32,000 nt of DNA from an archaeon. Lineage in GTDB: Archaea > Iainarchaeota > Iainarchaeia > Iainarchaeales > JANQMZ01. A program made the translations under genes and the position numbers. Below, in pieces: positions 4,661 through 29,183 of this stretch (position 1 is its first letter; every line of letters begins with the position of its first letter). Where the stretch lies: the NCBI GenBank assembly GCA_028279805.1, contig JANQMZ010000007.1, forward strand, positions 780,001 through 812,000, in the 5' to 3' direction. The notes below the pieces were generated by a model that saw nothing but the letters and a program-made list of their open reading frames with translations, was not told where the DNA came from and did not search any database.

Positions 4661-4726
4661 ATATTCAAAAATTGCTTTTTTTTTGTTTTAGGTTAAGATT
4701 TTAATTGTTTTTTGTCTTTTTTTGAC

Positions 4727-6034
4727 ATGGAAAGAATTCATTCAGGCAGAATTCCCGGTTTAAAAGGCCAAAAAATTTTGGTTTCAGGCTGGATTCATGA
4801 CATCAGGGATTTTGGCAACTTAAAATTTTTAATTTTAAAAGACAAAGAAGGAACAATGCAAATAACAATTCCTGCAAAAAAAGCATCAAAAGAAGTTACA
4901 AGCATTGCAAGCCAGTTAACAAAAGAGTCAGTCATATCTGTTTTAGGAAATGTAAAAGAATCTGACAAAGCAAGACAAGGTTTTGAAATAATTCCTGAAA
5001 AAATTGAATTATTGTCAAAATCTGAAACACCTGTTCCAATTGACATGAGTAAAAAAATTGAATCTGATTTGTCAACAAGATTGGATTACAGGTTTCTGGA
5101 TGTAAGGAATGAAAAAAGCATTGCATTATTTAAAATTCGTTCAAAAATGTTGAATCTTATTACAAACTTTTTTGATTCAAACAATTTTGTTGCAATTAAC
5201 ACTCCCAAAATAACATCTTCAGGAGTTGAATCAGGTTCAGAATTATTCAAAGTTGACTATTTTGGAAAAAACGCTTTTTTGGCTCAAAGCCCGCAAATTT
5301 ACAAGCAAATGTTTGTTGCGGCTGGATTTGAAAAAGTTTATGAAATCGGTTCAGTTTTTCGCGCAGAAAAATCTAACACTTCAAGGCATGTGACAGAATT
5401 TATCGGAATTGATTTTGAACAGGGCTTTATTAAAGATGAACATGATGCAATGGATACAGCAGAACAGTTAATGGTTTACTTGGTTGAGGGCATTGAAAAA
5501 GAATTAAAAGATGAATTAAAATTATGGGAAAGAAAACCTGTTAAAATGAAAAAATTTCCAAGAATCAGTTTTGAAAAAGCGGTTGAATTGCTGGCTGATG
5601 AAGGCAAAAAAATTCCAAAAAATGAAGATTTTGACCCTGAAGCTGAAAAACTTTTAAGCAAAATTATTCTGGAAAAACAAAAATCAGAATTTGTTTTCAT
5701 TTACAATTATCCTTACGTTAAAAGGCCTTTTTATCACATGAAACCTGAAAAAGATTCTCATGGCACCAAATCTTTTGATTTGCTGTGGAACGGCCTTGAA
5801 ATTGGCACAGGAGCCCAAAGAGAACATCGTTATGACATTTTAAAAAAACAGGCAAAAGAAAAAGGCATTAATCTTGATGAAATGCAGGATTATGCCAAAA
5901 TTTTTCAATATGGCTGCCCTCCTCACGGGGGAATGGGTTTGGGTCTGGACAGGTTTGTTGAAGCTTTTTTAAAACTTGACAACATCAGAGAAGCAATTTT
6001 GTTGCCAAGAGACCCTGAGAGGCTGACTCCATGA
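4727..6034 (+). CDS. aspS: Aspartyl-tRNA synthetase (archaeal type, class IIb)
   Basis: N-terminal OB fold 'VSGWIHDIRDFGNLKFLILKD'. 'QSPQIYKQMFVAAGFEKVYEIGSVFRAEKSNTSRHVTEFIGIDFE' (motif 2). 'GGMGLGLDRFV' (motif 3). I prefer the ATG at 4727 to the in-frame TTG at 4712 used by the ORF track. Confidence 0.9.
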   Translation: MERIHSGRIPGLKGQKILVSGWIHDIRDFGNLKFLILKDKEGTMQITIPAKKASKEVTSIASQLTKESVISVLGNVKESDKARQGFEIIPEKIELLSKSETPVPIDMSKKIESDLSTRLDYRFLDVRNEKSIALFKIRSKMLNLITNFFDSNNFVAINTPKITSSGVESGSELFKVDYFGKNAFLAQSPQIYKQMFVAAGFEKVYEIGSVFRAEKSNTSRHVTEFIGIDFEQGFIKDEHDAMDTAEQLMVYLVEGIEKELKDELKLWERKPVKMKKFPRISFEKAVELLADEGKKIPKNEDFDPEAEKLLSKIILEKQKSEFVFIYNYPYVKRPFYHMKPEKDSHGTKSFDLLWNGLEIGTGAQREHRYDILKKQAKEKGINLDEMQDYAKIFQYGCPPHGGMGLGLDRFVEAFLKLDNIREAILLPRDPERLTP

Positions 6035-7347
6035 AAGAATTAAATTATTTGGAAAAAGACATTTCAAAAATTTCACAAATATTAAAAAAAGGCAAAGGCT
6101 CATTTAAAACAAGAGGCTGGTTTAAAAGAAAAAGAGAATTAAAAAACAAGATTTTTTTTATTTTATTTGATGAAACAAGTGAATTGCAATGTGTGGTTGA
6201 CAGGGATAAAGCTTTGAAAGATTTAATTAAGGATGCTGAAAAAGTTACAATTCAGTCAAGTGTTGAACTGGAAGGCCAATTAAAAAAAGATGAGCGTGCC
6301 CCTGACGGATTTGAATTGCAGATTAAAAAAATGCACATTGTTGGTTTGGCTCAAGATTTTCCAATCGGGAAAGATTTATCAACAGAATTTTTAATGGACG
6401 TTCGCCATTTATGGTTAAGAAGTGCAAAAATGCGTGACGCTTTAAAAGTCAGGGCAACTGTTTTTGATTCTTTCAGAAAATTTATGGAAAAAGAAAATGT
6501 TGTTGAAACACAGGGAGCAATGTTTGTATCCGGTTCTGTGGAAGGGGGTTCAACATTGTTTGAGGTTCCATATTTTGGAAAAAAAGCTTTTCTGACACAG
6601 TCAAGCCAGTTTTATTTGGAAGTGTTAATGCATTCTCTTGGAAAAGTTTATACGATTGCTCCGTCTTTTCGTGCTGAAAAATCCAAAACAAGGCGCCATT
6701 TAACAGAATTCTGGCATGCAGAAGTTGAACTGCCCTGGGCGCATTTGGAAGACATTATTGATTTTGAGGAAAGAATGATTAAATTTATGGTTAAAACCGT
6801 TGTTGAAAAAAATTCAAAAGAATTAAAGGCTTTAGGCAGAAACACTGAAGATTTAATGCCAACAATTGAACAAAAATTTCACAGAAAAAAATACAAAGAT
6901 GTAGTAAAAGATGCTATGAAAAAATTTTCATACTTAAAACACGGTTCCGATTTGGGTGAAAAAGAGGAAAGGGAGATAACCAAAAGCCTGAAAAAACCCC
7001 TTATTATTACCCATTATCCTGATTCTTTGAAGCCTTTTTATCATCGACGCAACCCTGATAATCCGAAAGAAATTTTATGCAATGACATTCTGGCACCTGA
7101 AGGTTTTGGTGAGATTATCGGTTCTGGTGAAAGGGTGTGGAATGAAAAAAAACTGGTTGAACAAATTAAAAAAGACAAATTAAACCCGGAAGACTATCAA
7201 TGGTATGTTGATTTGAGAAAATTTGGCTCCGTGCCAAGAGCCGGCTTTGGAATGGGTCTGGACCGGTTTACTGCATGGATTGTTAACGCGGAACACATCA
7301 GGGATGTAATTCCTTTGCCCAGAACCATGAACAGAATTGCTCCATGA
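6031..7347 (+). CDS. asnS: Asparaginyl-tRNA synthetase (class IIb)
   Basis: 'TQSSQFYLEVLMHSLGKVYTIAPSFRAEKSKTRRHLTEFWHAEVE' and 'AGFGMGLDRFTAWI' are AsnRS-type. A full N-terminal OB domain is present. The start overlaps the aspS stop (ATGA, 6031-6034). Confidence 0.88.
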   Translation: MKELNYLEKDISKISQILKKGKGSFKTRGWFKRKRELKNKIFFILFDETSELQCVVDRDKALKDLIKDAEKVTIQSSVELEGQLKKDERAPDGFELQIKKMHIVGLAQDFPIGKDLSTEFLMDVRHLWLRSAKMRDALKVRATVFDSFRKFMEKENVVETQGAMFVSGSVEGGSTLFEVPYFGKKAFLTQSSQFYLEVLMHSLGKVYTIAPSFRAEKSKTRRHLTEFWHAEVELPWAHLEDIIDFEERMIKFMVKTVVEKNSKELKALGRNTEDLMPTIEQKFHRKKYKDVVKDAMKKFSYLKHGSDLGEKEEREITKSLKKPLIITHYPDSLKPFYHRRNPDNPKEILCNDILAPEGFGEIIGSGERVWNEKKLVEQIKKDKLNPEDYQWYVDLRKFGSVPRAGFGMGLDRFTAWIVNAEHIRDVIPLPRTMNRIAP

Positions 7348-9026: not shown

Positions 9027-9560
9027 GTGTTTGATGACCGTGAAAAAGTGTTAAAGCTTGAAGTCAGAAAAAAAATAATGAAAGAAATAGCAAAAAGCCC
9101 GGGCATTCATTTTAGAGAGCTTCAACGCAGAACAAAGCTTGCTGTTGGTTCATTGCAGTATCATTTGGATGTTTTGCAAAAAGTTCATTTAATTAAAACG
9201 GTTAAAAAAGGAAAATTTGTCAGATTTTTTCCTGTAATAGGGGAACAAACAGAGGAAGAAAAAGAAACTTTGTCTTTTTTAAGAGATGATAGTGTTAGAA
9301 AAATTGTTTTGTTGTTATTGTCAAAAGAACAGGTGAACAATAAACAGATTTCTGATTTTTTGGCTTTAAGCCCTTCAACTGTTTCTTTTCATTTGCAAAA
9401 ACTTGAAGAAGGGGGTCTGATTGTAAAGCACAGGCAGGGAAGACAGACTTTTTTTTCCTTAATTGAACCTGAAAAAGCCAGAGAACTGTTAATTGGTTAT
9501 AAGAAAAGTTTTCTGGATGACATGGTTGACTCTTTTGTTGAGGTTTGGCAGGAAGTTTAA
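9027..9560 (+). CDS. Transcriptional regulator with two tandem winged-helix (ArsR-like) domains
   Basis: Two repeats of the wHTH pattern: 'GIHFRELQRRTKLAVGSLQYHLDVLQKVHLI' and 'NKQISDFLALSPSTVSFHLQKLEEGGLIVKHRQGRQTFF'. GTG start with AGGTG 7 nt upstream. Confidence 0.75.
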   Translation: MFDDREKVLKLEVRKKIMKEIAKSPGIHFRELQRRTKLAVGSLQYHLDVLQKVHLIKTVKKGKFVRFFPVIGEQTEEEKETLSFLRDDSVRKIVLLLLSKEQVNNKQISDFLALSPSTVSFHLQKLEEGGLIVKHRQGRQTFFSLIEPEKARELLIGYKKSFLDDMVDSFVEVWQEV

Positions 9561-13168: not shown

Positions 13169-15031
13169 TCACTTTTTTTCTAATTCTTTTTTTAACAATT
13201 CTGCAATTTGTTTCCCAGAAGCCTTGCCGCGCATTTCTTTCATAACATCACCCATTAAAGCTGATAATGCGTTCATTCCTTTTTCTTTTATTAAACCTGA
13301 ATTTTTTTGAACAACTTTTTTTACAATTGTTTCAATTTCTTCTGAGTTTTTTGCATCATGCCTGATAATGTTTTCCAGTTTTTGTTCAGGCTCTTTAATC
13401 CAGTTTTTCGCAATTTCTTCTGTTACATCTTTTGTTATTATTCCTTTTTTTTGTGCTTCAAATATTTGTTCAATTTTATTGTAATCCAATAACTGTGTTT
13501 CAATATTTTCTCTTTCCAGTTTTTTTAAGCTTTCTAGTACAAAAACCGCAATAGTTGTTGCATTGAATCCTTTTTTGAGCATTGATTCAAAAAAACAGGC
13601 GTGATTGCTTAATTTCATTTCATTTGCAAGTTTTTCACTTAAACCATGTTTTTTGTACAGTTTTTCCCTTTCTTCAACTGTTAAAGGCAAATCTTTTTTC
13701 AATTCCTGTAATTCTTTTTTTTCAATAATTTTATGCCTTAAATCTGTTTCCGGATACATTCTGGCTGCTCCGGGCAAAGGCCTTGAATAGCCTGAATTTC
13801 CCCCTTCCAATGCATTTCTTGTTTCATTTGGCACTCCTTTTAATCCCTGTTCGCATCTTTCAACAACAACATTTATTCCTTTCAATGCTTCTTTTTCAGG
13901 CCCTAAAATTAAAACAAATCCGTCTTTTTGCCCGCATTTTAATTCTTTTTTTAATTCTTCTAATTCTTTTTCACTGATTCCGTATTTTGGCAGTTCATCT
14001 GAATGAATCAATCCTTTTAGTTTTGTTTTTTGTTTAATGTAATCGGCTAATTCTGTTGCAAATCTTTTATCCGGCTGCAATTCTTTTCCGAGCAATCCTG
14101 AAAAATTTTCCAGTTTTAATCCTAAAACAATTCCTTTTTGTTTTAATGCTTTTTGAATTAATTTTGCATTTGTTTTTGTGAAATTTTTGGTTAAATTTTT
14201 TGAAATGTTTTCAATTTTTACAACGCCGCGTTTTTTTAATTCTTTTTTTATTTCAAGCAAACCAGTCTGCCTTTGTACCTCCCTTCTAACATATTCATCC
14301 ATTAACTCCAAATCCTGCACTCCTTTTAATTCAGTTCTTGCACCGTTTTTTATGCTGATATTTACATCCTGCCTTATGCTTCCCAAACCTCTTTTTGCTT
14401 TGCACGTCCTCCTGAACAATTGCCCAATTTTTAATGCACAATTTTTCACTTCTTCAGGCGTGTGCAAAACAGGTTCTGTTGCTAATTCTATTAAAGGAAT
14501 TCCCAGCCTGTCCAGATTGTAAACAATTTTGTTTGGAGTTGTTTCAATTGTTCTTGCGGAATCTTCTTCCAATACAATTGTCTGAATTCCTATTTTTTTT
14601 CCATCTGAATTTATTTCCCCGCCTAATGCAACCAAACCGGTTCTCTGAAACCCGGTTGTATTTGAACCGTCTATAACTGTTTTTCTCATTATAATTAATT
14701 CATCTAAAATTTTTGAATTGCACATTAATGCAATTTTTAAAATTGTTTTCAAAGCTTCTTTGTCAACAGGGCTCGGAGGCTCTTCATCCGCTTCAACCAA
14801 TCCTGCCGAATCATAATTTCCCAAATACTTGTATTCTAAATTTTTTTCAAAAGCTTCCAATGCAGCTTTATCCATTTCACCTGTTTCTGAAGCTGTCGGC
14901 CTTAATTTTCTGGTAAAAGAATAATGAGTTTTATCGCTTAAAATGCTGGGATACCTTGAAAACAGTTTCCCGGTTTCAAGCTGCTGATGGCATTCTAATC
15001 CTGCTTTTAAGCCCAATTCTTTGTAATTCAT
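13169..15031 (-). CDS. gatE: Glutamyl-tRNA(Gln) amidotransferase subunit E
   Basis: N-terminal 'GLKAGLECHQQLETGKLFS' and 620-aa length with a GatB/E core, an inserted domain and a C-terminal YqeY-like tail ('MGDVMKEMRGKASGKQIAELLKK'). gatD is not in this window. Confidence 0.88.
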   Translation of the reverse strand: MNYKELGLKAGLECHQQLETGKLFSRYPSILSDKTHYSFTRKLRPTASETGEMDKAALEAFEKNLEYKYLGNYDSAGLVEADEEPPSPVDKEALKTILKIALMCNSKILDELIIMRKTVIDGSNTTGFQRTGLVALGGEINSDGKKIGIQTIVLEEDSARTIETTPNKIVYNLDRLGIPLIELATEPVLHTPEEVKNCALKIGQLFRRTCKAKRGLGSIRQDVNISIKNGARTELKGVQDLELMDEYVRREVQRQTGLLEIKKELKKRGVVKIENISKNLTKNFTKTNAKLIQKALKQKGIVLGLKLENFSGLLGKELQPDKRFATELADYIKQKTKLKGLIHSDELPKYGISEKELEELKKELKCGQKDGFVLILGPEKEALKGINVVVERCEQGLKGVPNETRNALEGGNSGYSRPLPGAARMYPETDLRHKIIEKKELQELKKDLPLTVEEREKLYKKHGLSEKLANEMKLSNHACFFESMLKKGFNATTIAVFVLESLKKLERENIETQLLDYNKIEQIFEAQKKGIITKDVTEEIAKNWIKEPEQKLENIIRHDAKNSEEIETIVKKVVQKNSGLIKEKGMNALSALMGDVMKEMRGKASGKQIAELLKKELEKK

Positions 15032-15143
15032 GTTTTCTCTTTTAAAGTAATCCTCAATCTTTTTAATAAAATGTCTTTCCCGGGCTATTGTTTTAAAATT
15101 TGTTCAGAATACTAATGTTTTTGCTGAGAGGAGTTGGTTGGGT

Positions 15144-17318
15144 ATGCCAAAAAAATTTATCCTGATAGCCATGGCTATTATGGTATTAAGTTCACCGGTT
15201 TTTGCAGATTCCTGGTGGAATTCCGAATACAAAAACAGGACACCTTTAACTCTTGACCTTAACAAAAACAAATATTTTGGAATAGGTGACACGCTTGATT
15301 TAAATTTTTTAGATTTTAATTCAATGACAATTGCATGCAACGATTTGAATGATTTAAGAATTGTTGACCATGACAACAAAGAACTTGAAAGAATAATTTT
15401 GGGAAACAAAAACAGCAAAAACGGAAACATTTTTGCAACAGTTAAAACCGGTTTTGGTTCTGGAAAACACGTCTGGCATTTATATTCAAACAATCCCAGT
15501 TGTTCAAATCCTCCTAAAAAAATTAATTCTGTTATTAAAAATCGTTCTTTTGAACCAGCCTCTAATTTTAACTGGAGCGGAAAAACAGGACATTCCTGTG
15601 ACGGCGAATCATGCGGAGAACAACCACCCCAATATGATAATTCTTCATCTTCATCCTCTGAATATTTTTCACATGAAAAACATTCATGGAAACTTTACAC
15701 ATATGTTTACAGTGAAAGTTCAAATTCTGACCCTCATTCAAATGCCTGGGTTTTTCAAAAAAATGTTGATTTAAATAATGTTAACGGAATAAGAACCGAT
15801 TATAATTCAAGCAGCCGGGGAAAAAATGCTCAGATTCAAAACCAGTTTCTTTTAAAAATTTCAGGAGAGCCGGTGCATGAAATTTTTTCATATCCCGGGA
15901 AACAGCAGGGTGAAAAAAATGCTTTTGACAAATATTTGTTTCAGAACAAGTTAAATTTAACAGATGTGAATTACTGGTCTGAAGCTTATATTAATTGTTG
16001 TAGCTCTTCACCCGGCGAATCCGAGTTAACAGTTTTCGTTGACAACATTATAACTTTTTCTTCAGTTAAGCACAGCCTCGGAATAGAAGAAAGTCAGGGA
16101 AATTCTCCTGATGTAAATTTTTTAAAACCGGACATAAATGCAGTTATTAACAGAATTGACTCAAATAACCATATTATTGCATTTTCTTATTCTGATTTGG
16201 ATGAATCACAGCAAATGTTTGCACAACTCGGATGGCATTATTCGGACGGAAACAGCTTTGATAACATCATTATATCTGACTTAAATCTGAACAATTCACA
16301 GAATTGTAACGATTTTGATTTTAATACAGCCACAACCCAAAACTGTTTTTTTGACTGGAATTCTTATCCTCAGAAAACAACCCAAATTTTTATTGATTTA
16401 AAAGTTTTTGACTTGTTTGATTCAAACTATGTTTTTTCAGGGCCTTTTTTCACTGACTTTAATTCTCCAACTTTACAAATTTTTTCCCCGGATGAAAATG
16501 AGACAATTGAAACTGAAAACGTTCTGGTTCAGTTTGATGCAAATGATTCCTGTGGCCTGCAAAAATTTTTAATAAAACTTAACGATAAAGAATGGATTGA
16601 CAAAGGATTGGAAAAACAGCATTTGTTTGAAAATGTTGAAAACGGAAAACATGTTGTTATAGTTCAATCTTTTGATTTGTGTTCAAATGATTCAAATAAA
16701 AGTGTTAATTTTTTTGTACAGGTTCCCGAACCTGAACCCCAACCTCAAAATCCTCCTTCCCCGCCTTCATCCGGAGGCGGTGGTGCCGGTGGGGGCGGTG
16801 GTGGCGGAGGCGGCGGCCTTTTCCAAAAACCGAATTTTTTAATAAAAAATACAAACCAAAAAGAAATTGATGTTAATTTTTTGCTAAAAGATAATCAGAA
16901 TGAATTGAAAGAATGTGTTTTCTTTTTTGAATTTGTTCCAGAATTTGTTTCTTTTTCAGACGCATTTTTTGAATTTGAACAAAAACCTTTAACTTTTTCA
17001 GTTTCAAATAATTCAGTTAAATTTGATAAAAGTTTTTGCAATATTGTTGAAACAGGGGAACATGTTGTCATATTTTCATCAAATGAAAATGAATGGATTG
17101 TTACTTTTTTAAACGGCAAAGTGTTTGATGCCCGTGAAAAAAACAGTTTTGAATTTGTTAAAAATGATTCCGGTTTAACGGGTTTTTTTGTTTTGCCTGA
17201 TCTGAATCAGATTGCCTGGCCCGTTCCTCTTGCTTTTATTTTGTTTTTGCTGGCTGTCTTTGTTTTTTTTAAAAAGCTTAAAAAAACGCCTGTGAAAAAA
17301 ACTGAAAATCCTTTTTAA
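15144..17318 (+). CDS. Secreted, C-terminally membrane-anchored surface protein (DUF2341-like N-terminus, Pro/Gly linker)
   Basis: Signal peptide 'MPKKFILIAMAIMVLSSPVFA|D'. 'SWWNSEYKNRTPLTL' resembles the start of DUF2341 domains. Many Cys residues and N-x-S/T sequons. Linker 'PEPEPQPQNPPSPPSSGGGGAGGGGGGGGGG'. C-terminal TM 'WPVPLAFILFLLAVFVFF' followed by KKLKK. The ATG at 15144 follows SD-like GAGAGGAG. The TTG at 15138 is the ORF-track start. Confidence 0.75.
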   Translation: MPKKFILIAMAIMVLSSPVFADSWWNSEYKNRTPLTLDLNKNKYFGIGDTLDLNFLDFNSMTIACNDLNDLRIVDHDNKELERIILGNKNSKNGNIFATVKTGFGSGKHVWHLYSNNPSCSNPPKKINSVIKNRSFEPASNFNWSGKTGHSCDGESCGEQPPQYDNSSSSSSEYFSHEKHSWKLYTYVYSESSNSDPHSNAWVFQKNVDLNNVNGIRTDYNSSSRGKNAQIQNQFLLKISGEPVHEIFSYPGKQQGEKNAFDKYLFQNKLNLTDVNYWSEAYINCCSSSPGESELTVFVDNIITFSSVKHSLGIEESQGNSPDVNFLKPDINAVINRIDSNNHIIAFSYSDLDESQQMFAQLGWHYSDGNSFDNIIISDLNLNNSQNCNDFDFNTATTQNCFFDWNSYPQKTTQIFIDLKVFDLFDSNYVFSGPFFTDFNSPTLQIFSPDENETIETENVLVQFDANDSCGLQKFLIKLNDKEWIDKGLEKQHLFENVENGKHVVIVQSFDLCSNDSNKSVNFFVQVPEPEPQPQNPPSPPSSGGGGAGGGGGGGGGGLFQKPNFLIKNTNQKEIDVNFLLKDNQNELKECVFFFEFVPEFVSFSDAFFEFEQKPLTFSVSNNSVKFDKSFCNIVETGEHVVIFSSNENEWIVTFLNGKVFDAREKNSFEFVKNDSGLTGFFVLPDLNQIAWPVPLAFILFLLAVFVFFKKLKKTPVKKTENPF
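16725..16817 (+). repeat. Low-complexity GC-rich coding tract (Pro-rich then 15-codon Gly/Ala run)
   Basis: CCN/GAA repeats are followed by gga ggc ggt ggt gcc ggt ggg ggc ggt ggt ggc gga ggc ggc ggc (16773-16817). This is the most GC-rich stretch in the window. Confidence 0.9.
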
Positions 17319-23288: not shown

Positions 23289-25409
23289 ATGAAACTTTTA
23301 CATTTTTATTGCATGAAAAAACGGTTTTTTATTTTAAATTTTTTTTTCTTATTTTTAATTTTAAATGCTTTTACAGTTTATGCAGTTGTTGAATATTCTT
23401 CAATGCCCATTTTTGCGGTAACTGATACTGATGAAGCATTGAGAGCTGACTTGGATTTGAATCTTATTCCGGGAGGAACCGCTGATTCTTTTTTTTCCTC
23501 CAAATCAGTGAATGTCGGAACATCTACTCAAACAACCGGAAGAATTGCTGTTGCTTTGGCTGAAAATTATTCAGATGATTCTAAAAAATATGATTATAAG
23601 TTTAATATTAAAACACAGGCAGTTGAAGTGGACGGCCCGAGTGCGGGAGCAGCAATGGCTTTGCTTGTAATTTCTTCTCTGCAGGATAAAAGCTTACCGG
23701 GCAATGTTGCGGTAACCGGAACAATTACTCCTGACGGAATTGTGGGCCCTGTTGGCGGTGTTTTTTTTAAAGTGCAGGAATCTTCAAAGCACGGAATTGA
23801 TTTGTTTATGATTCCACGCGGGGAAGGAATTCAAACTGTTAAGCTTGACGGAAAAATTCAAACAGTTGATTTGATTCAGCATGCTTTTGACGAATGGAAT
23901 TTAAAAGTTGTTGAAGTGAGAACAATTGATGATGTTTTAAAACTTGCTTTTGAAAATGTTGAAAAAATTGATATAACCGAACAGTCCTCTGAAAGAGAAC
24001 CCATTTTTAAGCCCAAAGAAATTCAGATTAACGGAAAATTAAATGTAATGAAAGATGTTTTTTTTGAAATTTTAGAAAAATCCGAACAATCCCTTGAAGA
24101 ATCAAAACAGGCTTTAAATCAAACAACGATCGATGACCATTATGCTTTGTCTATTTTGCTGGAATATCAAAGATTTGCTGAAAGAAATTATGAGGAATCT
24201 TCTTTGTTGTTTGACCAGAATTATCTTTATTCTTCAGCAAACACAGCATATCTTTCACTTGTATATTCTTCTCTTGTTAAGGATATTGCCCAAAACCCTG
24301 TATTGCTTGAATTAGATTCTGATTTTTTTAACCAAAAATTAACCGATTTGTCTGATAAAATAGATGAGTTTGAGAACAGTTTTTCTGAGAGGCTTCCGGT
24401 GGATTTGCTTGAATGGAACATTTCCTCAAAACAGAGGCTTTTATGGGCTAAAAATTTTGTTCAAAATCTTTTAACAGTCAAAACAGTTGTTCTTGATAAT
24501 AATGAAAGGCAGAAAATAAATATTGCAGTTTCGAATGTTGAATCTTTTCATTTTGCAAAAGAATGGCTTAATGTTTCAAAACAATTTTATGAAATTTCAA
24601 AAAAGTCAAATTCTTTTGCGGTTCAGGGAGAAGAATTTTCGGATTTTGCAGATGTTTTAATTAGTGAAGCTGAAAATGCTGTAAGTTCTGTTGATATTGA
24701 AGAATCTGAGGATGTTACAAGAAGACTTAACAGTTCAAGGATTGCCAGGGAAAAAGGATGGAATGTTTCATCTGCGACTGATGCTTTTTCAGCAATTGCT
24801 TTAAACAATTCAAGAATTCGTTCACAGAATCAATCTTTGGAGCAGCTTGTAACTTTTTTGGAAGAAAAAATCACAGACCTTGAGCAAAGAATGTCTGAAT
24901 CAGGAAGAGATTTTTTATGGCCGCAGCTTTATCTGGATCATGCTAAATATTTTCTGGAAGCGTCTGCTTTTTATGAAAGCGAAGGGCTTAACACTTCTGC
25001 AATTGACAGGGCAAAATCTGGTTTAAGTTTGGTTTTTTTGGCGGAAGGAGTTTTTGAGGTAACAGATGAAGCTTATAATTTTTATGAAAATGTTCCTGTG
25101 CAAAATTTATCAATTCCTCCGGTAGAAGATGACACAATTTTTATTTTTTTAATTATAATTGCAGGAACACTTGTTTTTGGCATTATTTTAAAATTGTTAC
25201 ATTCAAAACAGGATAAAAAAATTGAAAATATTTCAAGCCTTATAAGAAAAAGAGAACTTTTGCATAAAAAAGAATTAAAAATTAAAAAACAGGAAAGGCT
25301 TATTGAAAGAAAAATAAGAAAAGCGAAAGACAAACCTAAACCAAAAAAATTTGCTTTTAAGCCTAAAAAGGCTAAAAAAGGCAAAAAAGAAGATTATGAT
25401 ATGTATTAA
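23289..25409 (+). CDS. Membrane-anchored Lon-like (S16) serine protease without AAA+ module, plus large helical domain
   Basis: N-terminal hydrophobic helix 'FFILNFFFLFLILNAFTVYA'. S16 domain 'VEVDGPSAGAAMALLV...VTGTITPDGIVGPVGGVFFKVQES'. C-terminal TM 'IFIFLIIIAGTLVFGIILKLL' followed by a Lys-rich tail. No Walker motifs were seen. An alternative start is at M9 (23313). Confidence 0.75.
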   Translation: MKLLHFYCMKKRFFILNFFFLFLILNAFTVYAVVEYSSMPIFAVTDTDEALRADLDLNLIPGGTADSFFSSKSVNVGTSTQTTGRIAVALAENYSDDSKKYDYKFNIKTQAVEVDGPSAGAAMALLVISSLQDKSLPGNVAVTGTITPDGIVGPVGGVFFKVQESSKHGIDLFMIPRGEGIQTVKLDGKIQTVDLIQHAFDEWNLKVVEVRTIDDVLKLAFENVEKIDITEQSSEREPIFKPKEIQINGKLNVMKDVFFEILEKSEQSLEESKQALNQTTIDDHYALSILLEYQRFAERNYEESSLLFDQNYLYSSANTAYLSLVYSSLVKDIAQNPVLLELDSDFFNQKLTDLSDKIDEFENSFSERLPVDLLEWNISSKQRLLWAKNFVQNLLTVKTVVLDNNERQKINIAVSNVESFHFAKEWLNVSKQFYEISKKSNSFAVQGEEFSDFADVLISEAENAVSSVDIEESEDVTRRLNSSRIAREKGWNVSSATDAFSAIALNNSRIRSQNQSLEQLVTFLEEKITDLEQRMSESGRDFLWPQLYLDHAKYFLEASAFYESEGLNTSAIDRAKSGLSLVFLAEGVFEVTDEAYNFYENVPVQNLSIPPVEDDTIFIFLIIIAGTLVFGIILKLLHSKQDKKIENISSLIRKRELLHKKELKIKKQERLIERKIRKAKDKPKPKKFAFKPKKAKKGKKEDYDMY

Positions 25410-28372
25410 GCTGCAATTTTTTCTTTTAACTTTAATCCTATAACACTTGATTTTTGCTTGTTTAATGCAACTCCGATTATTTCATCTGCCTGTTTTATCA
25501 GTGTGTCATTGTGGGTTATTGCAATAAACTGTGATTCTTTGTTTATTTCTTTTACTATTCTGGCCATTTTAACCGAATTAACTTTATCCAAAGCTGCATC
25601 TGCTTCATCAAAAACATAAAAAGGTGCTGGATCATAAAGCTGTATTGCAAACAAAAAAGCCAGAGCTGTCAATGTTCTTTCTCCACCGGACATGCTGTCA
25701 ATGTTAAGCATTTTTTCTCCCACATGCCTTGCTTCTATAACAAGTCCGGATTCAAGCGGGTTATCTTTATCTGTTAAAGAAAGAGAACCCTCTCCCTCAA
25801 AAAAATTGTAAAACATTTTTTTGAAATGATTATTTATTTTGTTAAAACATTCCATGAACACACTTGTTCTTTTAAATTCAATTTGTTCCATTAAGTCAAG
25901 AACAGAATCTTTTTCATTTTGCAGTATTTCAACTTTGTGTTTTATTTCTTCAAGTTCTTTTTTTTGTTCCTGAAATGAATCTAAGGCTTTCATGTTAATT
26001 GTTCCGAGTTTTTCAATTTGTTTATCCAGTCTTCCAAGTTCTTGTTTTAATTCTGGTAAATTCATGTTATGTAAAACGCTTACGTTTTCAAATTCTTTAA
26101 ATTCTTCTTCCAAATCTGTAAGCCTTATTTCATTTTTTCCTTTTTCCAGTTCAAGCCTTGATTCTTCTTTTTCAAATGTTTTTATTTTTCTTTCATTGTC
26201 TTCCAGTTTTTTTTCAATTTTTTCAATTTTTAAAACAATTTTTGCTTTTTGCTCTTCTCTTTGCTTGCTTTGCTTTTCTGCTATTTTTTCCTCTTTTTCC
26301 AGATCTTTTAATTCTGATTCTATTTGCAGTATTTTTTTCTCGTTTTCCTGCATTTTTTGCTCATTTTCTTGGGTTTCTGTTTTAAGGTTTTTTATTTCTT
26401 CGCTTGTTTTTTCTTTTTCAACAGGAATCTGGACTGAAATTTTATTCTCATATGCTTTTTGTTCAGATTCCAGTAGTGTTTTTCTGGTTTCCAGTTCTGA
26501 TAATTTTTCTGACGCCTCCTTTAATTCTGTAAAATCAAATCCTTTTCTGGCATTTTCCATTTTTTCCATTGCAGATGAAGATTTTTGTTTTAATTGTTCA
26601 AGTGTTTCTTTCAATTCTGTTATTTTGTCAACATTTTCATCCGGTTTTTTTATTTTGTTTTTTAATTCGTTTATCCGGGCTTCCAGTTCTGTTTTTCTTT
26701 CCTTTAGTATTTCCAATTCTTCAACTTCTTTGTCAAGTTCTTTTTTTTCTTCCAACAGGTTTTTTAATTCTTCAAGTTTTTTTTTGTGCTCATGTTTTTC
26801 ATTAAAATGTTTTTTTCCCAAGTGTGCTAATTGTTTTTTGTTTGAATGTTTTAATTCAATTATTGCTGTTTTTGTATGACTGTTTAACTCTTTTTCACAT
26901 GTGGGGCATTTTGAAATATCTTCTTCTAAAATTTTTATTGTTTCCTGTAATGCTTCTATTTTTCCTGTAATTGTTTTTTCTTTTTCCAGGGCTTTGTCAA
27001 TTTTTGTTTCAGTTTCTTCAATAATTTGTTTTATATCAGGATTTTTTGAATTAATATTTTTTAACATTTCTTCTTTTGACAATTTTGAACCTATTTTTTC
27101 CACTATTTTTTCAATTTCTTTTTCTTTTTCATTTATTTCTTTTCTTGTAAACATGTTTTCGTTTTTAATTGATTCTATTGACAGTTCTTTTTGATTCAGT
27201 TCTTCCCTTAATATGTCCATTTGGCCTGAAATTCGTGAAAATTCTTCATTTGCTGTTTCAAAAAAATCCCTTCTTTTGTCTGCTTTTTCCTTCAATTCGT
27301 TTCTTTTCTGTTTTAAGCTTTTTACCTGGTTTTCAACATCATTTAATTCTGTTTTTGAATCTTTTATTTTTTGTTCTGTTTCCGTTTTTTCTTTTTCAAA
27401 ATTTTTTAACATTTGATTTAATTCTTCTGTTTTTTCTTTGTTTGAATAAACCTGTTTTTCTGCGGTTGAAATTTTTTCTTCATAAAGTTTTTTGAATCCT
27501 TTTTTCTTTTCTTTTTCTGATAAAATTTCAGAATAAGTTTTTTTTCCCTGTTCTAACAATTCCTGTGTTATTTTTTCAGATTTTTCCCTGTTTTCTTCAA
27601 TTTCTTTTTTTAATTCTTCTTTTTTTCCCTCGCTTTGTTCTTTGTCTTTGGCTGTGTTTTCAATTTTTTTGTTTATTTCATCAACGCTTTGTTGTATTTC
27701 TTTTTTTTCGAGTGATAAAATTGTTGCTTTTACTTTTTCCTCTTTTTTTAACAATTCCTGGTGTTGTTTTGCTGCGTTCATTTCCTCTTCCAGTTGTGAC
27801 AGGTAAACCTCTCTTTCATTCATTACAATTGTAATATCTTTTATTTTCTGGCTGACTTTTTCAAGTTCTTTCTGGGCTTCCTGTTTTTTTCCGTCAAATT
27901 CTGCCAGGCCTGCTATTTCGTCAATTATTTCCCGTCTTTCCACTGGAGATTGTGAAATAATTCTTGTAACATCTCCTTGTGCTACAATATTGTATCCGTC
28001 GTTTTTGATTTTTAATTCTGATAAGAGTGAACGTATTTCGTTTAATGTTTTTTTTTCACCGTTTAATCTGAAAAAACTTTTTCCTTTTTTGTCAATTGTT
28101 CTGCTGATATTCCATGAGTTTTTTTCATTTTTTATTTCAAGTTCAACTTTTGCATAGTTTTCAGAGCCTATGCTGTTAATCAAATCCTTTAATTTTGAGG
28201 CTCTGATAAGCTTTAAAGACGTGTTTCCAAGCACGAACAATAATGCGTCTAAAATGTTGCTTTTGCCCGAACCGTTGGGGCCTGCAATCACAGTAAATTC
28301 ATTGCTTATCGGTATTTCCGCTTTTTGAAATGATTTAAAGTTTTTTAATTTTAAATTTTTTAATTTAATCAT
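25406..28372 (-). CDS. smc: SMC-family chromosome-organisation ATPase with central CxxC zinc-hook motif in place of a hinge
   Basis: N-head: 'GPNGSGKSNILDALLFVLG', 'LIRASKLKDLI', 'DGYNIVAQGDVTRII' and 'ERREIIDEIAGLAEFD'. C-head: 'MSGGERTLTALAFLFAIQLYDPAPFYVFDEADAALD' and 'ESQFIAITHND'. Residues ~165-800 are coiled coil. 'KCPTCEKEL' sits at residues 488-496 of 988. Confidence 0.85.
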   Translation of the reverse strand: MIKLKNLKLKNFKSFQKAEIPISNEFTVIAGPNGSGKSNILDALLFVLGNTSLKLIRASKLKDLINSIGSENYAKVELEIKNEKNSWNISRTIDKKGKSFFRLNGEKKTLNEIRSLLSELKIKNDGYNIVAQGDVTRIISQSPVERREIIDEIAGLAEFDGKKQEAQKELEKVSQKIKDITIVMNEREVYLSQLEEEMNAAKQHQELLKKEEKVKATILSLEKKEIQQSVDEINKKIENTAKDKEQSEGKKEELKKEIEENREKSEKITQELLEQGKKTYSEILSEKEKKKGFKKLYEEKISTAEKQVYSNKEKTEELNQMLKNFEKEKTETEQKIKDSKTELNDVENQVKSLKQKRNELKEKADKRRDFFETANEEFSRISGQMDILREELNQKELSIESIKNENMFTRKEINEKEKEIEKIVEKIGSKLSKEEMLKNINSKNPDIKQIIEETETKIDKALEKEKTITGKIEALQETIKILEEDISKCPTCEKELNSHTKTAIIELKHSNKKQLAHLGKKHFNEKHEHKKKLEELKNLLEEKKELDKEVEELEILKERKTELEARINELKNKIKKPDENVDKITELKETLEQLKQKSSSAMEKMENARKGFDFTELKEASEKLSELETRKTLLESEQKAYENKISVQIPVEKEKTSEEIKNLKTETQENEQKMQENEKKILQIESELKDLEKEEKIAEKQSKQREEQKAKIVLKIEKIEKKLEDNERKIKTFEKEESRLELEKGKNEIRLTDLEEEFKEFENVSVLHNMNLPELKQELGRLDKQIEKLGTINMKALDSFQEQKKELEEIKHKVEILQNEKDSVLDLMEQIEFKRTSVFMECFNKINNHFKKMFYNFFEGEGSLSLTDKDNPLESGLVIEARHVGEKMLNIDSMSGGERTLTALAFLFAIQLYDPAPFYVFDEADAALDKVNSVKMARIVKEINKESQFIAITHNDTLIKQADEIIGVALNKQKSSVIGLKLKEKIAA

Positions 28373-28394: not shown

Positions 28395-29183
28395 TTAAAT
28401 GTTTTTGTTTAATTTTTTTTTAAAATAATAAATGGCAACAGCAAGTGAATTAAAAGCATAAATGTATGCACTTGTTAGGGCAATTATTCCCAGCACAATC
28501 AAATCATCTGCAAACAAGTCTATTAGAATTGTCTGAATTTCTGAAAAAATTGTATTAGCAATTCCTATTAAAATTATGAAAACCAAAACTTTCAGAACAT
28601 TTTGTGCAACAAATTCCCAGCTTTCCCTTAACCCCTGTTTTATTGTTAAATTGTTTGCAACAACGGCAGGAATTGTAAAAATTATTCCTATTATTGCATA
28701 CAAATAAAGAACAAACAAAAGAATTGAAATTATTCCTGCCAATACCGGAATTGTTTCAAAAATAATTCCGGAAAACCATAACAATGCAGACAAAACAAAA
28801 AATAATACCATTAAAAAAACAGCGTATGTGAATGATTTTCTTATATTCTGAAAAGCAAAACTTCTTGCTTCTCTAAAATTTTGATTGTTTTCAACAGCTT
28901 TTGAATAAAAGAAAAACAAAAGTGTCTGAAGCGAAAGCATTAACAATCCCAGGACAATTCCGCTTAGCATTTCAAAAGGATAAAGCAGGAAAAGTTTTGG
29001 AACAGTTTCAACAAAAGTTGGTCCTGTAAGCCCCGGTTCTGCTGCAAGAGTTAAAAACAGGTCAATCACAGGAAATCCTATTAAAACAAATGCAACAAAT
29101 TGTATTAAAAAAATTCCCAGTGAAAAAAGCCATGCTTTTGGATTTAAAGCTGTTTTGAGTGAGCTTGCTATTGTTCCGATCAT
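28395..29183 (-). CDS. Hypothetical polytopic membrane protein (about 6-7 TM helices)
   Basis: 262-aa hydrophobic ORF, 22 nt upstream of the smc-like start on the same strand. Confidence 0.6.
   Translation of the reverse strand: MIGTIASSLKTALNPKAWLFSLGIFLIQFVAFVLIGFPVIDLFLTLAAEPGLTGPTFVETVPKLFLLYPFEMLSGIVLGLLMLSLQTLLFFFYSKAVENNQNFREARSFAFQNIRKSFTYAVFLMVLFFVLSALLWFSGIIFETIPVLAGIISILLFVLYLYAIIGIIFTIPAVVANNLTIKQGLRESWEFVAQNVLKVLVFIILIGIANTIFSEIQTILIDLFADDLIVLGIIALTSAYIYAFNSLAVAIYYFKKKLNKNI

Follow-up and report, generated by a model that had tools for sequence, protein, structure and literature searches.

The smc gene described here lies at positions 25406 to 28372 on the minus strand of a 32,000-nt stretch of archaeal contig JANQMZ010000007.1 (assembly GCA_028279805.1, positions 780,001 to 812,000; the whole stretch is called the window below). 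It encodes a 988-aa protein that has SMC ATPase heads and SMC coiled-coil arms, carries a CPTC motif at mid-chain and lacks a recognizable hinge. The gene is the resident chromosomal smc, orthologous by position to hinge-bearing SMCs. We consider it probable that in this Iainarchaeota-type DPANN archaeon the ~190-residue hinge of the resident smc was replaced in place by a Rad50-type hook, and that the product is a Zn-bridged condensin-type homodimer. Zinc binding, homodimerization and a condensin-like cellular role are suggested by the sequence and by analogy with Rad50. An earlier note on this DNA had proposed SMC heads joined through a Rad50-style zinc hook; its observation is confirmed and its interpretation supported. 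We looked for each of the four outcomes that the note had named as fatal to its proposal (a bona fide central hinge, unconserved cysteines, heads grouping with Rad50, and a chimeric assembly) and found none of them.

A hinge-less SMC with a mid-chain CPTC motif

The open reading frame is intact, and all of the peptide strings quoted in the earlier note are found in the translation. Its parts are listed below; residue numbers are those of the 988-aa protein, and invariance refers to an alignment of 90 family sequences.

25406 to 28372, minus strand: smc gene encoding the hinge-less SMC with mid-chain CPTC; open reading frame of 988 aa, stop codon at 25406-25408
27881 to 28372, minus strand: N-terminal ATPase head half, residues 1-164; G31, N33, G36, K37, N39 and Q132 invariant
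28256 to 28282, minus strand: Walker A, GPNGSGKSN, residues 31-39; the Q-loop is Q132
26927 to 27880, minus strand: N-terminal coiled-coil arm, residues 165-482, about 318 aa; DSSP helices 157-216, 237-443 and 447-482
26858 to 26926, minus strand: hook core, residues 483-505, from alignment column counts and the core profile
26897 to 26908, minus strand: CPTC, with C489 and C492 the presumed Zn ligands of one chain; codons tgc-ccc-aca-tgt
25883 to 26857, minus strand: C-terminal coiled-coil arm, residues 506-830; DSSP helices 498-550, 553-572, 578-610, 615-746 and 772-788
25409 to 25882, minus strand: C-terminal ATPase head half, residues 831-988; TIGR02168 aligns residues 506-972 to profile positions 693-1170
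25679 to 25690, minus strand: signature SGGE, residues 895-898; S895, G896, G897 and E898 invariant
25586 to 25621, minus strand: Walker B/D-loop, residues 918-929; D922, E923 and D929 invariant, as is H954 of the H-loop

Cysteine is rare in the protein, being found only at positions 489, 492 and 842; at 0.3% Cys, the chance expectation is ~0.01 for a CxxC anywhere and ~2e-4 for one within ±10 residues of the midpoint. Codons tgc ccc aca tgt at 26908-26897 give C489-P-T-C492, where the motif had been placed before. The description of residues ~165-800 as a K/E/L-rich coiled coil also holds: K, E and L together make up 51% of this region, Gly occurs 11 times, and the modelled helices are long.

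SMC-type heads and arms

The best NCBIfam match of the protein was SMC_prok_A (TIGR02169), at 550 bits; the best Rad50 model scored 133, the ASRP model (NF045487) 130 and arcadin-4 61. The 550 bits are below the curated equivalog cut-off of 729, a shortfall that arises because ~195 hinge positions of the profile find no match: profile positions 2-496 are covered collinearly by residues 4-499, and the hinge positions alone are left unaligned. Pfam returned SMC_N at 135.9 bits (cut-off 40) together with generic P-loop families. When PDB sequences were searched, Pyrococcus Smc head, coiled-coil and joint constructs came out best (5xei at E 5e-91, 5xns, 4i99), with Rad50 heads at ~3e-16; 5xei, which comprises Smc head, coiled coil and joint, aligned to residues 716-984. 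All ATPase motifs (Walker A, Q-loop, signature, Walker B, D-loop and H-loop) are invariant in the 90-sequence alignment. Conservation falls from 0.74 in the heads to 0.61-0.62 in the necks and 0.34-0.39 in the distal arms, the hook core standing at 0.52; the extreme C-terminal strands, S975-L980, are almost invariant.

A full-length AlphaFold2 model built on the same alignment (predicted local distance difference test [pLDDT] 79.9) has a two-lobed head, with a beta-rich fold in its N-terminal half (pLDDT about 90), and long helices. Paired breaks in the helices, at 217-236 in the N-terminal arm and 747-771 in the C-terminal arm, correspond to the SMC joint, and the conserved necks span residues 165-225 and 772-830. 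With the whole model as query, Foldseek placed condensin Smc4 (6yvu_B), the Pyrococcus Smc head with joint and Smc5/6 at the top, and Rad50 at rank 17. The earlier reading of both head halves as SMC rather than Rad50 is borne out by these profile, PDB and Foldseek results and by the head tree described below.

A helical hairpin in place of the hinge

Pfam found no SMC_hinge (PF06470) match in the 988-aa protein even at E ≤ 1. The same model does detect hinges in relatives (L003, L004, L008, L019 and P0275, at 95-110 bits), and precomputed SMC_hinge annotation was present in none of the 120 closest database clusters. At mid-chain, the full-length model consists of a helix (447-482), a 15-residue loop (483-497) and a second helix (498-550), without a globular domain. 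Modelled separately, residues 425-560 form a helical hairpin (pLDDT 94.4, predicted template modelling score 0.79) with CPTC in the tip loop (484-497). The absence of a hinge is thus seen by Pfam, by profile alignment and in the AlphaFold model, and the hairpin puts CPTC at the fold-back point between arms of ~320 aa each, both as the earlier note had it. In the Micrarchaeota relatives the hinge (PF06470, 95-110 bits) starts at residue 488-501, matching the distance of C489 from the head.

A Rad50-type hook core

A profile of the apex, made from residues 425-560 of 35 family sequences, matched the Pyrococcus furiosus Rad50 hook at E 4e-12 (6zff) and 5e-12 (1l8d); the next PDB sequence followed at E 0.013. 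The apex consensus that pairs with the P. furiosus hook reads aieeLkKeiakCPvCeseLekekKekLl, and the 28-column core profile alone scored 27.6 bits (E 2e-5) against that hook. Within the family the hook consensus is L482-x-K-x-x-[SA]-x-C-P-[VTI]-C-[DE]-x-x-L-x-x-x-K-K-x-x-[LI]. Across the 90 aligned sequences C489 and C492 are present in all 90 and P490 in 89, and the conserved flanks comprise L482, K484, [SA]487, [DE]493, L496, K500, K501 and [LI]504. Likeness to Rad50 beyond the ~28-residue hook core was rejected, since the flanks score under the SMC-arm background. The limitation of the Rad50 signal to this core leads us to conclude that a short hook module on SMC arms took the place of the hinge.

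With the apex model as query, Foldseek returned 1l8d first (chain B, template modelling score 0.74 on target, root mean square deviation 4.1 over 104 columns) and human Rad50 5gox fourth. The E-values (0.03-0.17; 1l8d 0.03) are weak, as expected for helical hairpins, and the matches stand among generic helical hairpins, so that we use this result for support only. Pfam Rad50_zn_hook (PF04423) gave nothing at E ≤ 1 on the 988-aa protein itself; it is above its cut-off in the relatives P0087 (25.9 bits) and P0285 (30.7 bits), and precomputed Rad50_zn_hook annotation is present in 10 of the 120 closest clusters. The resemblance to a Rad50 hook that had been read from the motif therefore stands for the family, by the apex profile and by PF04423 on relatives, and does not extend to a PF04423 match on this protein.

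A conserved family with three apex states

Three apex states, hinge, hook and neither, occur among orthologues at one conserved locus. An NCBI contig of 853 kb and an independently assembled Logan contig of 73 kb encode the identical 988-aa protein. Its 120 closest database clusters are 33-43% identical to it over the full length, most of them 985-1004 aa long, and are labelled DPANN Diapherotrites/Iainarchaeum ("ainarchaeum"), with single entries for Micrarchaeota and Pacearchaeota; 100 of them have C-P-[VTI]-C at mid-chain. An exhaustive phmmer search over 1.84 billion representatives gave ~45 clusters (50% identity) at no less than 460 bits, hinge-less except for P0275, and below them a step in score to canonical SMCs at no more than 423 bits, which aligned in two stretches split at the hinge. 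Two checks proposed in the earlier note are answered by these data: both cysteines are invariant in 90 aligned relatives of 33-43% identity, and an assembly chimera is contradicted by the same protein in two independent assemblies and the same architecture in >100 relatives.

Length differences within the family are confined to the distal arms, with heads and proximal arms constant. Short-arm orthologues of 772-810 aa keep the hook, and each of their arms is ~90 residues shorter, in the distal half only. The short-arm hook relatives are P0087, P0090-P0092, P0099, P0102, P0109, P0115 and P0274. Among more distant matches there are mini-SMCs of about 800-870 aa with a hinge (P0292, P0296, P0317, P0328 and P0329).

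Inteins are present in some orthologues (P0079, P0064, P0103, P0107, P0263 and P0359). That of P0079 is a 192-aa mini-intein in Walker A after GPNASGK (C...HN, followed by S), and the larger ones carry LAGLIDADG homing-endonuclease domains.

The resident smc locus

Gene order at all family loci examined is membrane protein, SMC, Lon_C protease and L12-L10-L1-L11-NusG-SecE-FtsZ. The two genes that flank smc in the window are the following.

28395 to 29183, minus strand: membrane protein of 262 aa with ~6 hydrophobic segments and a weak PF10110 match (DUF7847-like), 22 nt upstream of smc
23289 to 25409, plus strand: Lon_C (S16) protease of 706 aa with a signal/transmembrane start, a long helical region, a C-terminal transmembrane segment and a Lys-rich tail

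At each family locus examined, the membrane-protein gene (~260-300 aa) stands directly upstream of smc on the same strand, 5-61 nt away, and from this arrangement it is possibly co-transcribed with smc. It was not found at the locus of the hinge-bearing P0275, nor beside the hinge-bearing relatives examined. The Lon_C gene, convergent with smc and sharing a 4-nt end overlap with it, is kept downstream at all family loci and also beside P0275.

P0275 (1012 aa, L088:5188-8226) has a genuine PF06470 hinge at 434-548 (96 bits) and shorter arms. Its heads are 54-60% identical to hook-SMC heads, a value equal to the likeness within the family, and its gene lies in the same L44e/SMC/Lon_C arrangement on a single 11.5-kb Logan contig. 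P0275 joins the hook clade in 60/60 bootstraps, its exact placement within the clade being unsettled. P0278, a 1171-aa hinge-SMC of the nearest outgroup, adjoins the L12-L10-L1-L11-NusG-SecE-FtsZ cluster. Given these two loci, the simplest reading is that the hook replaced the hinge within the resident smc gene.

Phylogeny of the heads agrees with this placement. Neighbour-joining trees were made from 363-375 concatenated head columns, without a Rad50 outgroup. The outgroups were canonical SMCs, which made up most of the matches listed when genome contigs were searched with the full-length family alignment. In these trees the family forms a clade in 100/100 bootstraps that lies within archaeal SMC, and its sister group, in 98/100, is the hinge-bearing SMCs of Micrarchaeota, so that the check on head phylogeny suggested earlier came out in favour of SMC. 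The sister placement mirrors the Micrarchaeum/Iainarchaeum grouping of some ribosomal-protein trees, which is mostly weakly supported there (PMC7203096).

Two other groupings were seen in the head tree. On a contig labelled Methanothrix sp. MAG (L007), the SMC falls among those of Micrarchaeota, possibly a result of mis-binning. SMCs from Cyanobacteria and Melainabacteria (L014-L016, L020, L027 and L035) cluster with archaeal and not with other bacterial SMCs, and several of these smc genes have scpA directly downstream.

Proposed mechanism

We propose that each chain would fold back at residues 483-497, giving a ~47-nm antiparallel arm that runs from the SMC head to the CPTC knuckle. One Zn2+ held by four cysteines, two per chain, would join two chains at the apex, as in the Rad50 hook, where two cysteines from each of two chains surround one Zn2+ (Hopfner et al. 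2002, as related in papers that cite it). The Zn bridge would stand in for constitutive hinge dimerization, and the heads would pass through an ATP-driven engagement cycle as in SMC. A Zn-bridged apex combined with an SMC ATPase cycle would make the protein most likely the condensin-type chromosome organizer of the cell, acting via loop extrusion or DNA entrapment. A hook-bridged SMC is mechanistically credible because engineered hinge/hook swaps work: Bacillus subtilis Smc with the P. furiosus Rad50 hook for its hinge gives growth and near-normal arm alignment (PMC5344682), and in fission yeast the MukB hinge can take the place of the Rad50 hook (PMC6969161).

Evidence against and alternative explanations

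Several results weigh against a hook-bridged condensin derived from a hinge SMC. A search with hidden Markov models (HMMs) of ScpA and ScpB, built from scpA and scpB genes beside canonical archaeal smc genes, found neither protein in the window nor within 10 kb of smc in eight family loci, in line with the lack of adjacent scpA/scpB remarked on in the earlier note. Two ScpA queries matched only Thermococcus, haloarchaeal and Micrarchaeota ScpAs, none of them on a contig equal in length to one that carries a hook-SMC. The N and C flanks of the hook core score -3.8 and 4.8 bits against Rad50, under a canonical SMC arm background of up to 28, and the core may have arisen by convergence instead of acquisition from rad50. 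About 15% of orthologues (921-949 aa) have neither hinge nor CxxC, ~60-70 apex residues being gone; this loss suggests that apex bridging is not indispensable in the lineage. The head trees, finally, are not maximum-likelihood trees.

The cysteine-less orthologues have a plain hairpin at the apex, retain the conserved locus (e.g. L086:10001-12787) and fall in at least three places of the tree, where internal branching is weak. Cysteine-less relatives are P0057, P0068, P0072, P0080, P0093, P0094, P0100, P0116, P0270, P0272 and P0277. As a tentative and rather speculative extension, the arm apex could be an exchangeable module in one smc lineage, with a hinge in P0275, the hook in the majority and only a hairpin in ~15%; if the hook-SMC, together with its cysteine-less derivatives, were the sole SMC in these ultra-small cells and independent of ScpAB, SMC function in vivo would require no hinge, no apex bridge and no kleisin.

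It is also conceivable, though we think it unlikely, that the protein is a kleisin-less Zn-bridged tether or compartment organizer, similar to Rad50 or coalescin (ClsN), and not a condensin ring. The missing scpA/scpB at the eight loci fits such a role, unlike the situation in many archaea with a canonical smc, where scpA is directly downstream (L009, L010, L021, L023 and L025); so does the taxonomic range of the ScpA matches, and the conserved upstream gene encodes a family-specific membrane protein instead. On the other hand, scpAB is apart from smc in Micrarchaeota relatives too, so that non-adjacency says little. Kleisin N-domains bind the coiled-coil necks in Smc-ScpAB (PDB 3zgx), and the necks of the hook-SMCs are conserved at 0.61-0.62 vs 0.34-0.39 for the distal arms, with S975-L980 nearly invariant. 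From their sequences, these necks and C-terminal strands would be compatible with kleisin binding.

A scpA-scpB pair was seen on a 777-kb contig (L087:10001-11195), beside L11-NusG and apart from smc, and its ScpA groups with Micrarchaeota-labelled ScpAs; we therefore take non-adjacency to be normal in this branch of DPANN. Two candidate partners were rejected. One is a protein near smc in three family loci, tried as a divergent kleisin, for which hhalign against ScpA gave a probability of 0.1% and which is absent from the window; its genes are listed below. The other is the window reading frame at 9027-9560, tried as ScpB (E 0.068 with a two-sequence HMM), which by Pfam is a regulator with a double winged helix-turn-helix (HTH_24, HVO_0163_N).

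L082:7393-8214, L083:7674-8507 and L086:8222-9097, minus strand: protein of 273-291 aa with a winged-helix-like N-terminus, a helical middle and no Pfam match, 1-2 kb upstream of smc

A further reading, which we regard as improbable, takes CPxC to be a convergent turn-stabilizing or redox motif without intermolecular Zn, any dimerization being via arms and heads. It draws on the restriction of the Rad50 likeness to ~28 residues with flanks under the SMC-arm background, on the persistence of cysteine-free orthologues at the same locus and on the weak apex Foldseek E-value of 0.03. Against it, two cysteines per chain cannot fill a tetrahedral site within one chain, and no other conserved Cys or His lies near CPxC. 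The flanks L482, K484, L496, K500/K501 and [LI]504 moreover correspond one by one to those of the P. furiosus Rad50 hook, and the profile E-value of 4e-12 is ten orders of magnitude better than those of other PDB coiled coils.

That the gene encodes an SMC-related paralogue (ASRP/ClsN/Sph or arcadin-4) or a defence ATPase (Lamassu LmuB, Wadjet JetC or MADS) is very unlikely. ASRPs do carry zinc hooks (PMC9389158), there are the matches to NF045487 (130 bits) and arcadin-4 (61 bits), and PADLOC gave mad3 at 178 bits, LmuB at 72 and JetC at 41. All of these scores are far under the 550 bits of SMC_prok_A. The ASRP match is under its cut-off of 300 and aligns the C-terminal head only, and the protein has 988 aa vs about 600. 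The neighbours are housekeeping genes (ribosomal proteins, FtsZ, NusG, SecE, aminoacyl-tRNA synthetase, GatE) and include no defence genes; the sole defence-model matches among them are weak Csa3/CARF winged helix-turn-helix matches on an HTH-S-layer-C protein (PADLOC). Positional orthology with hinge-SMCs likewise argues against a paralogue.

Even less can be said for a Rad50/SbcC orthologue with SMC-like heads. Such a protein would account for the mid-chain CPxC, for a length of ~990 aa, which is in the Rad50 range, and for the weak Rad50 NCBIfam matches of 70-133 bits. The best of these, however, stands at 133 bits vs a cut-off of 1087 (Rad50 cut-offs are 700-1087) and vs 550 for SMC, and the PDB searches gave ~3e-16 vs 5e-91. 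The SMC joint is present by the 5xei alignment, and the nearest relatives are hinge-bearing SMCs that share the locus. The Mre11/SbcD nuclease gene usually adjoins that of Rad50/SbcC, and no Mre11-like gene was found in the 32-kb window nor within ±10 kb in relatives.

An assembly artefact or recent hinge deletion (pseudogene), for which nothing more specific speaks than the metagenomic source of the genome, has a negligible probability, given the same protein in two assemblies, >100 relatives of like architecture that share 33-43% identity, the ~45 clusters (50% identity) of the phmmer search, an intact frame and invariant catalytic motifs.

Comparison with described systems

The nearest relatives of the hook-SMCs are the prokaryotic Smc proteins (Pyrococcus 5xei/4i99, B. 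subtilis), with which they share head motifs, neck, joint, ~320-aa arms and gene neighbourhood. Unlike these, they have CPxC in place of the PF06470 hinge, score under the TIGR02169 cut-off and have no adjacent scpA. With the Rad50/SbcC hook (1l8d, 6zff, PF04423) they have in common CP[VTI]C at the tip of an antiparallel coiled coil and the flanks L-K-K...C-P-V-C-x-x-x-L...L-L; the likeness is limited to the ~28-residue core, whereas heads, neck, joint and arms are SMC and no Mre11 neighbour was found.

The closest counterpart in design is an engineered protein, B. subtilis Smc(Zh) (Burmann et al. 2017, PMC5344682), which joins SMC heads and arms to a Rad50 hook; its junction, at about residue 480-490 of the N arm, is placed as in the hook-SMC. 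The reciprocal exchange, a Rad50 with the MukB hinge (Tatebe et al. 2020, PMC6969161), is likewise a laboratory construct made by apex exchange. In contrast to these chimeras, the hook-SMC is natural and clade-wide, and its members fall into several classes of arm length (about 990, 806 and 775 aa).

Among natural proteins, the ASRPs (coalescin ClsN, Sph1/2; Yoshinaga et al. 2022, PMC9389158) are also archaeal and hinge-less and have a mid-chain zinc hook. They are a separate family of about 600 aa, whereas the hook-SMC nests among hinge-bearing SMCs and scores 550 bits as SMC. The SMC-related families with a zinc hook that the ASRP paper names are Rad50 and ASRP (PMC9389158). Hinge-less SMCs of marine Actinobacteria (Sussfeld et al. 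2025, PMC12153180) have SMC heads and arms without a hinge, but they are bacterial, CXXC is stated to be absent from them, and they resemble only the cysteine-less ~15% of the archaeal family. The full-text literature searched, outside which most subscription-journal papers fall, yielded no account of an SMC that naturally bears a zinc hook. Within that literature the hook-for-hinge swap has so far been reported only as a laboratory construct, and an earlier mention elsewhere is possible.

Other features of the window and of family loci

Several family loci share a gene for a large DUF87/HerA-like ATPase (859-1120 aa), 5-8 kb upstream of smc:

L001:1716-4295, L082:1-2145, L083:4252-7614 and L085:1108-4023: DUF87/HerA-like ATPase; in the source genome it lies just past the right end of the window

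Beside ftsZ in the window there is a 726-aa open reading frame without a Pfam match (15138-17318, plus strand), and a 724-aa call stands at the same place in the independent assembly (L001). GatE is encoded at 13169-15031 on the minus strand. At 4712-6034 and 6031-7347 on the plus strand lie paired class-II aminoacyl-tRNA synthetase paralogues of the Asp/Asn/Lys type (440 and 438 aa), with a 4-nt overlap. A promoter and terminator scan gave sites no commoner than in shuffled sequence, its model not being applicable to archaea.

Implications

What the SMC hinge contributes besides joining two chains is debated; DNA binding, a DNA entry gate and a hinge-to-head hand-over in loop extrusion have been proposed. 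Our results indicate that the engineered exchange of hinge for hook was also made by evolution, in the resident smc of an entire archaeal clade, where strong purifying selection has preserved it. A natural hinge-to-hook swap maintained in this way argues that constitutive dimerization is the essential job of the hinge, a mechanistic lesson partly anticipated by the chimera experiments. The surprise lies in finding an engineered chimera in nature, and in three apex states at one locus.

There is also a consequence for annotation. Database entries for hook-SMCs are labelled "AAA family ATPase" or "hypothetical protein", and with such labels and SMC scores below the cut-off, automated annotation leaves these genomes with an SMC that goes unnamed. 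Orthologues with a hinge, a hook or neither, together with three arm-length classes, provide natural material for work on the functions of the hinge and on the tuning of arm length.

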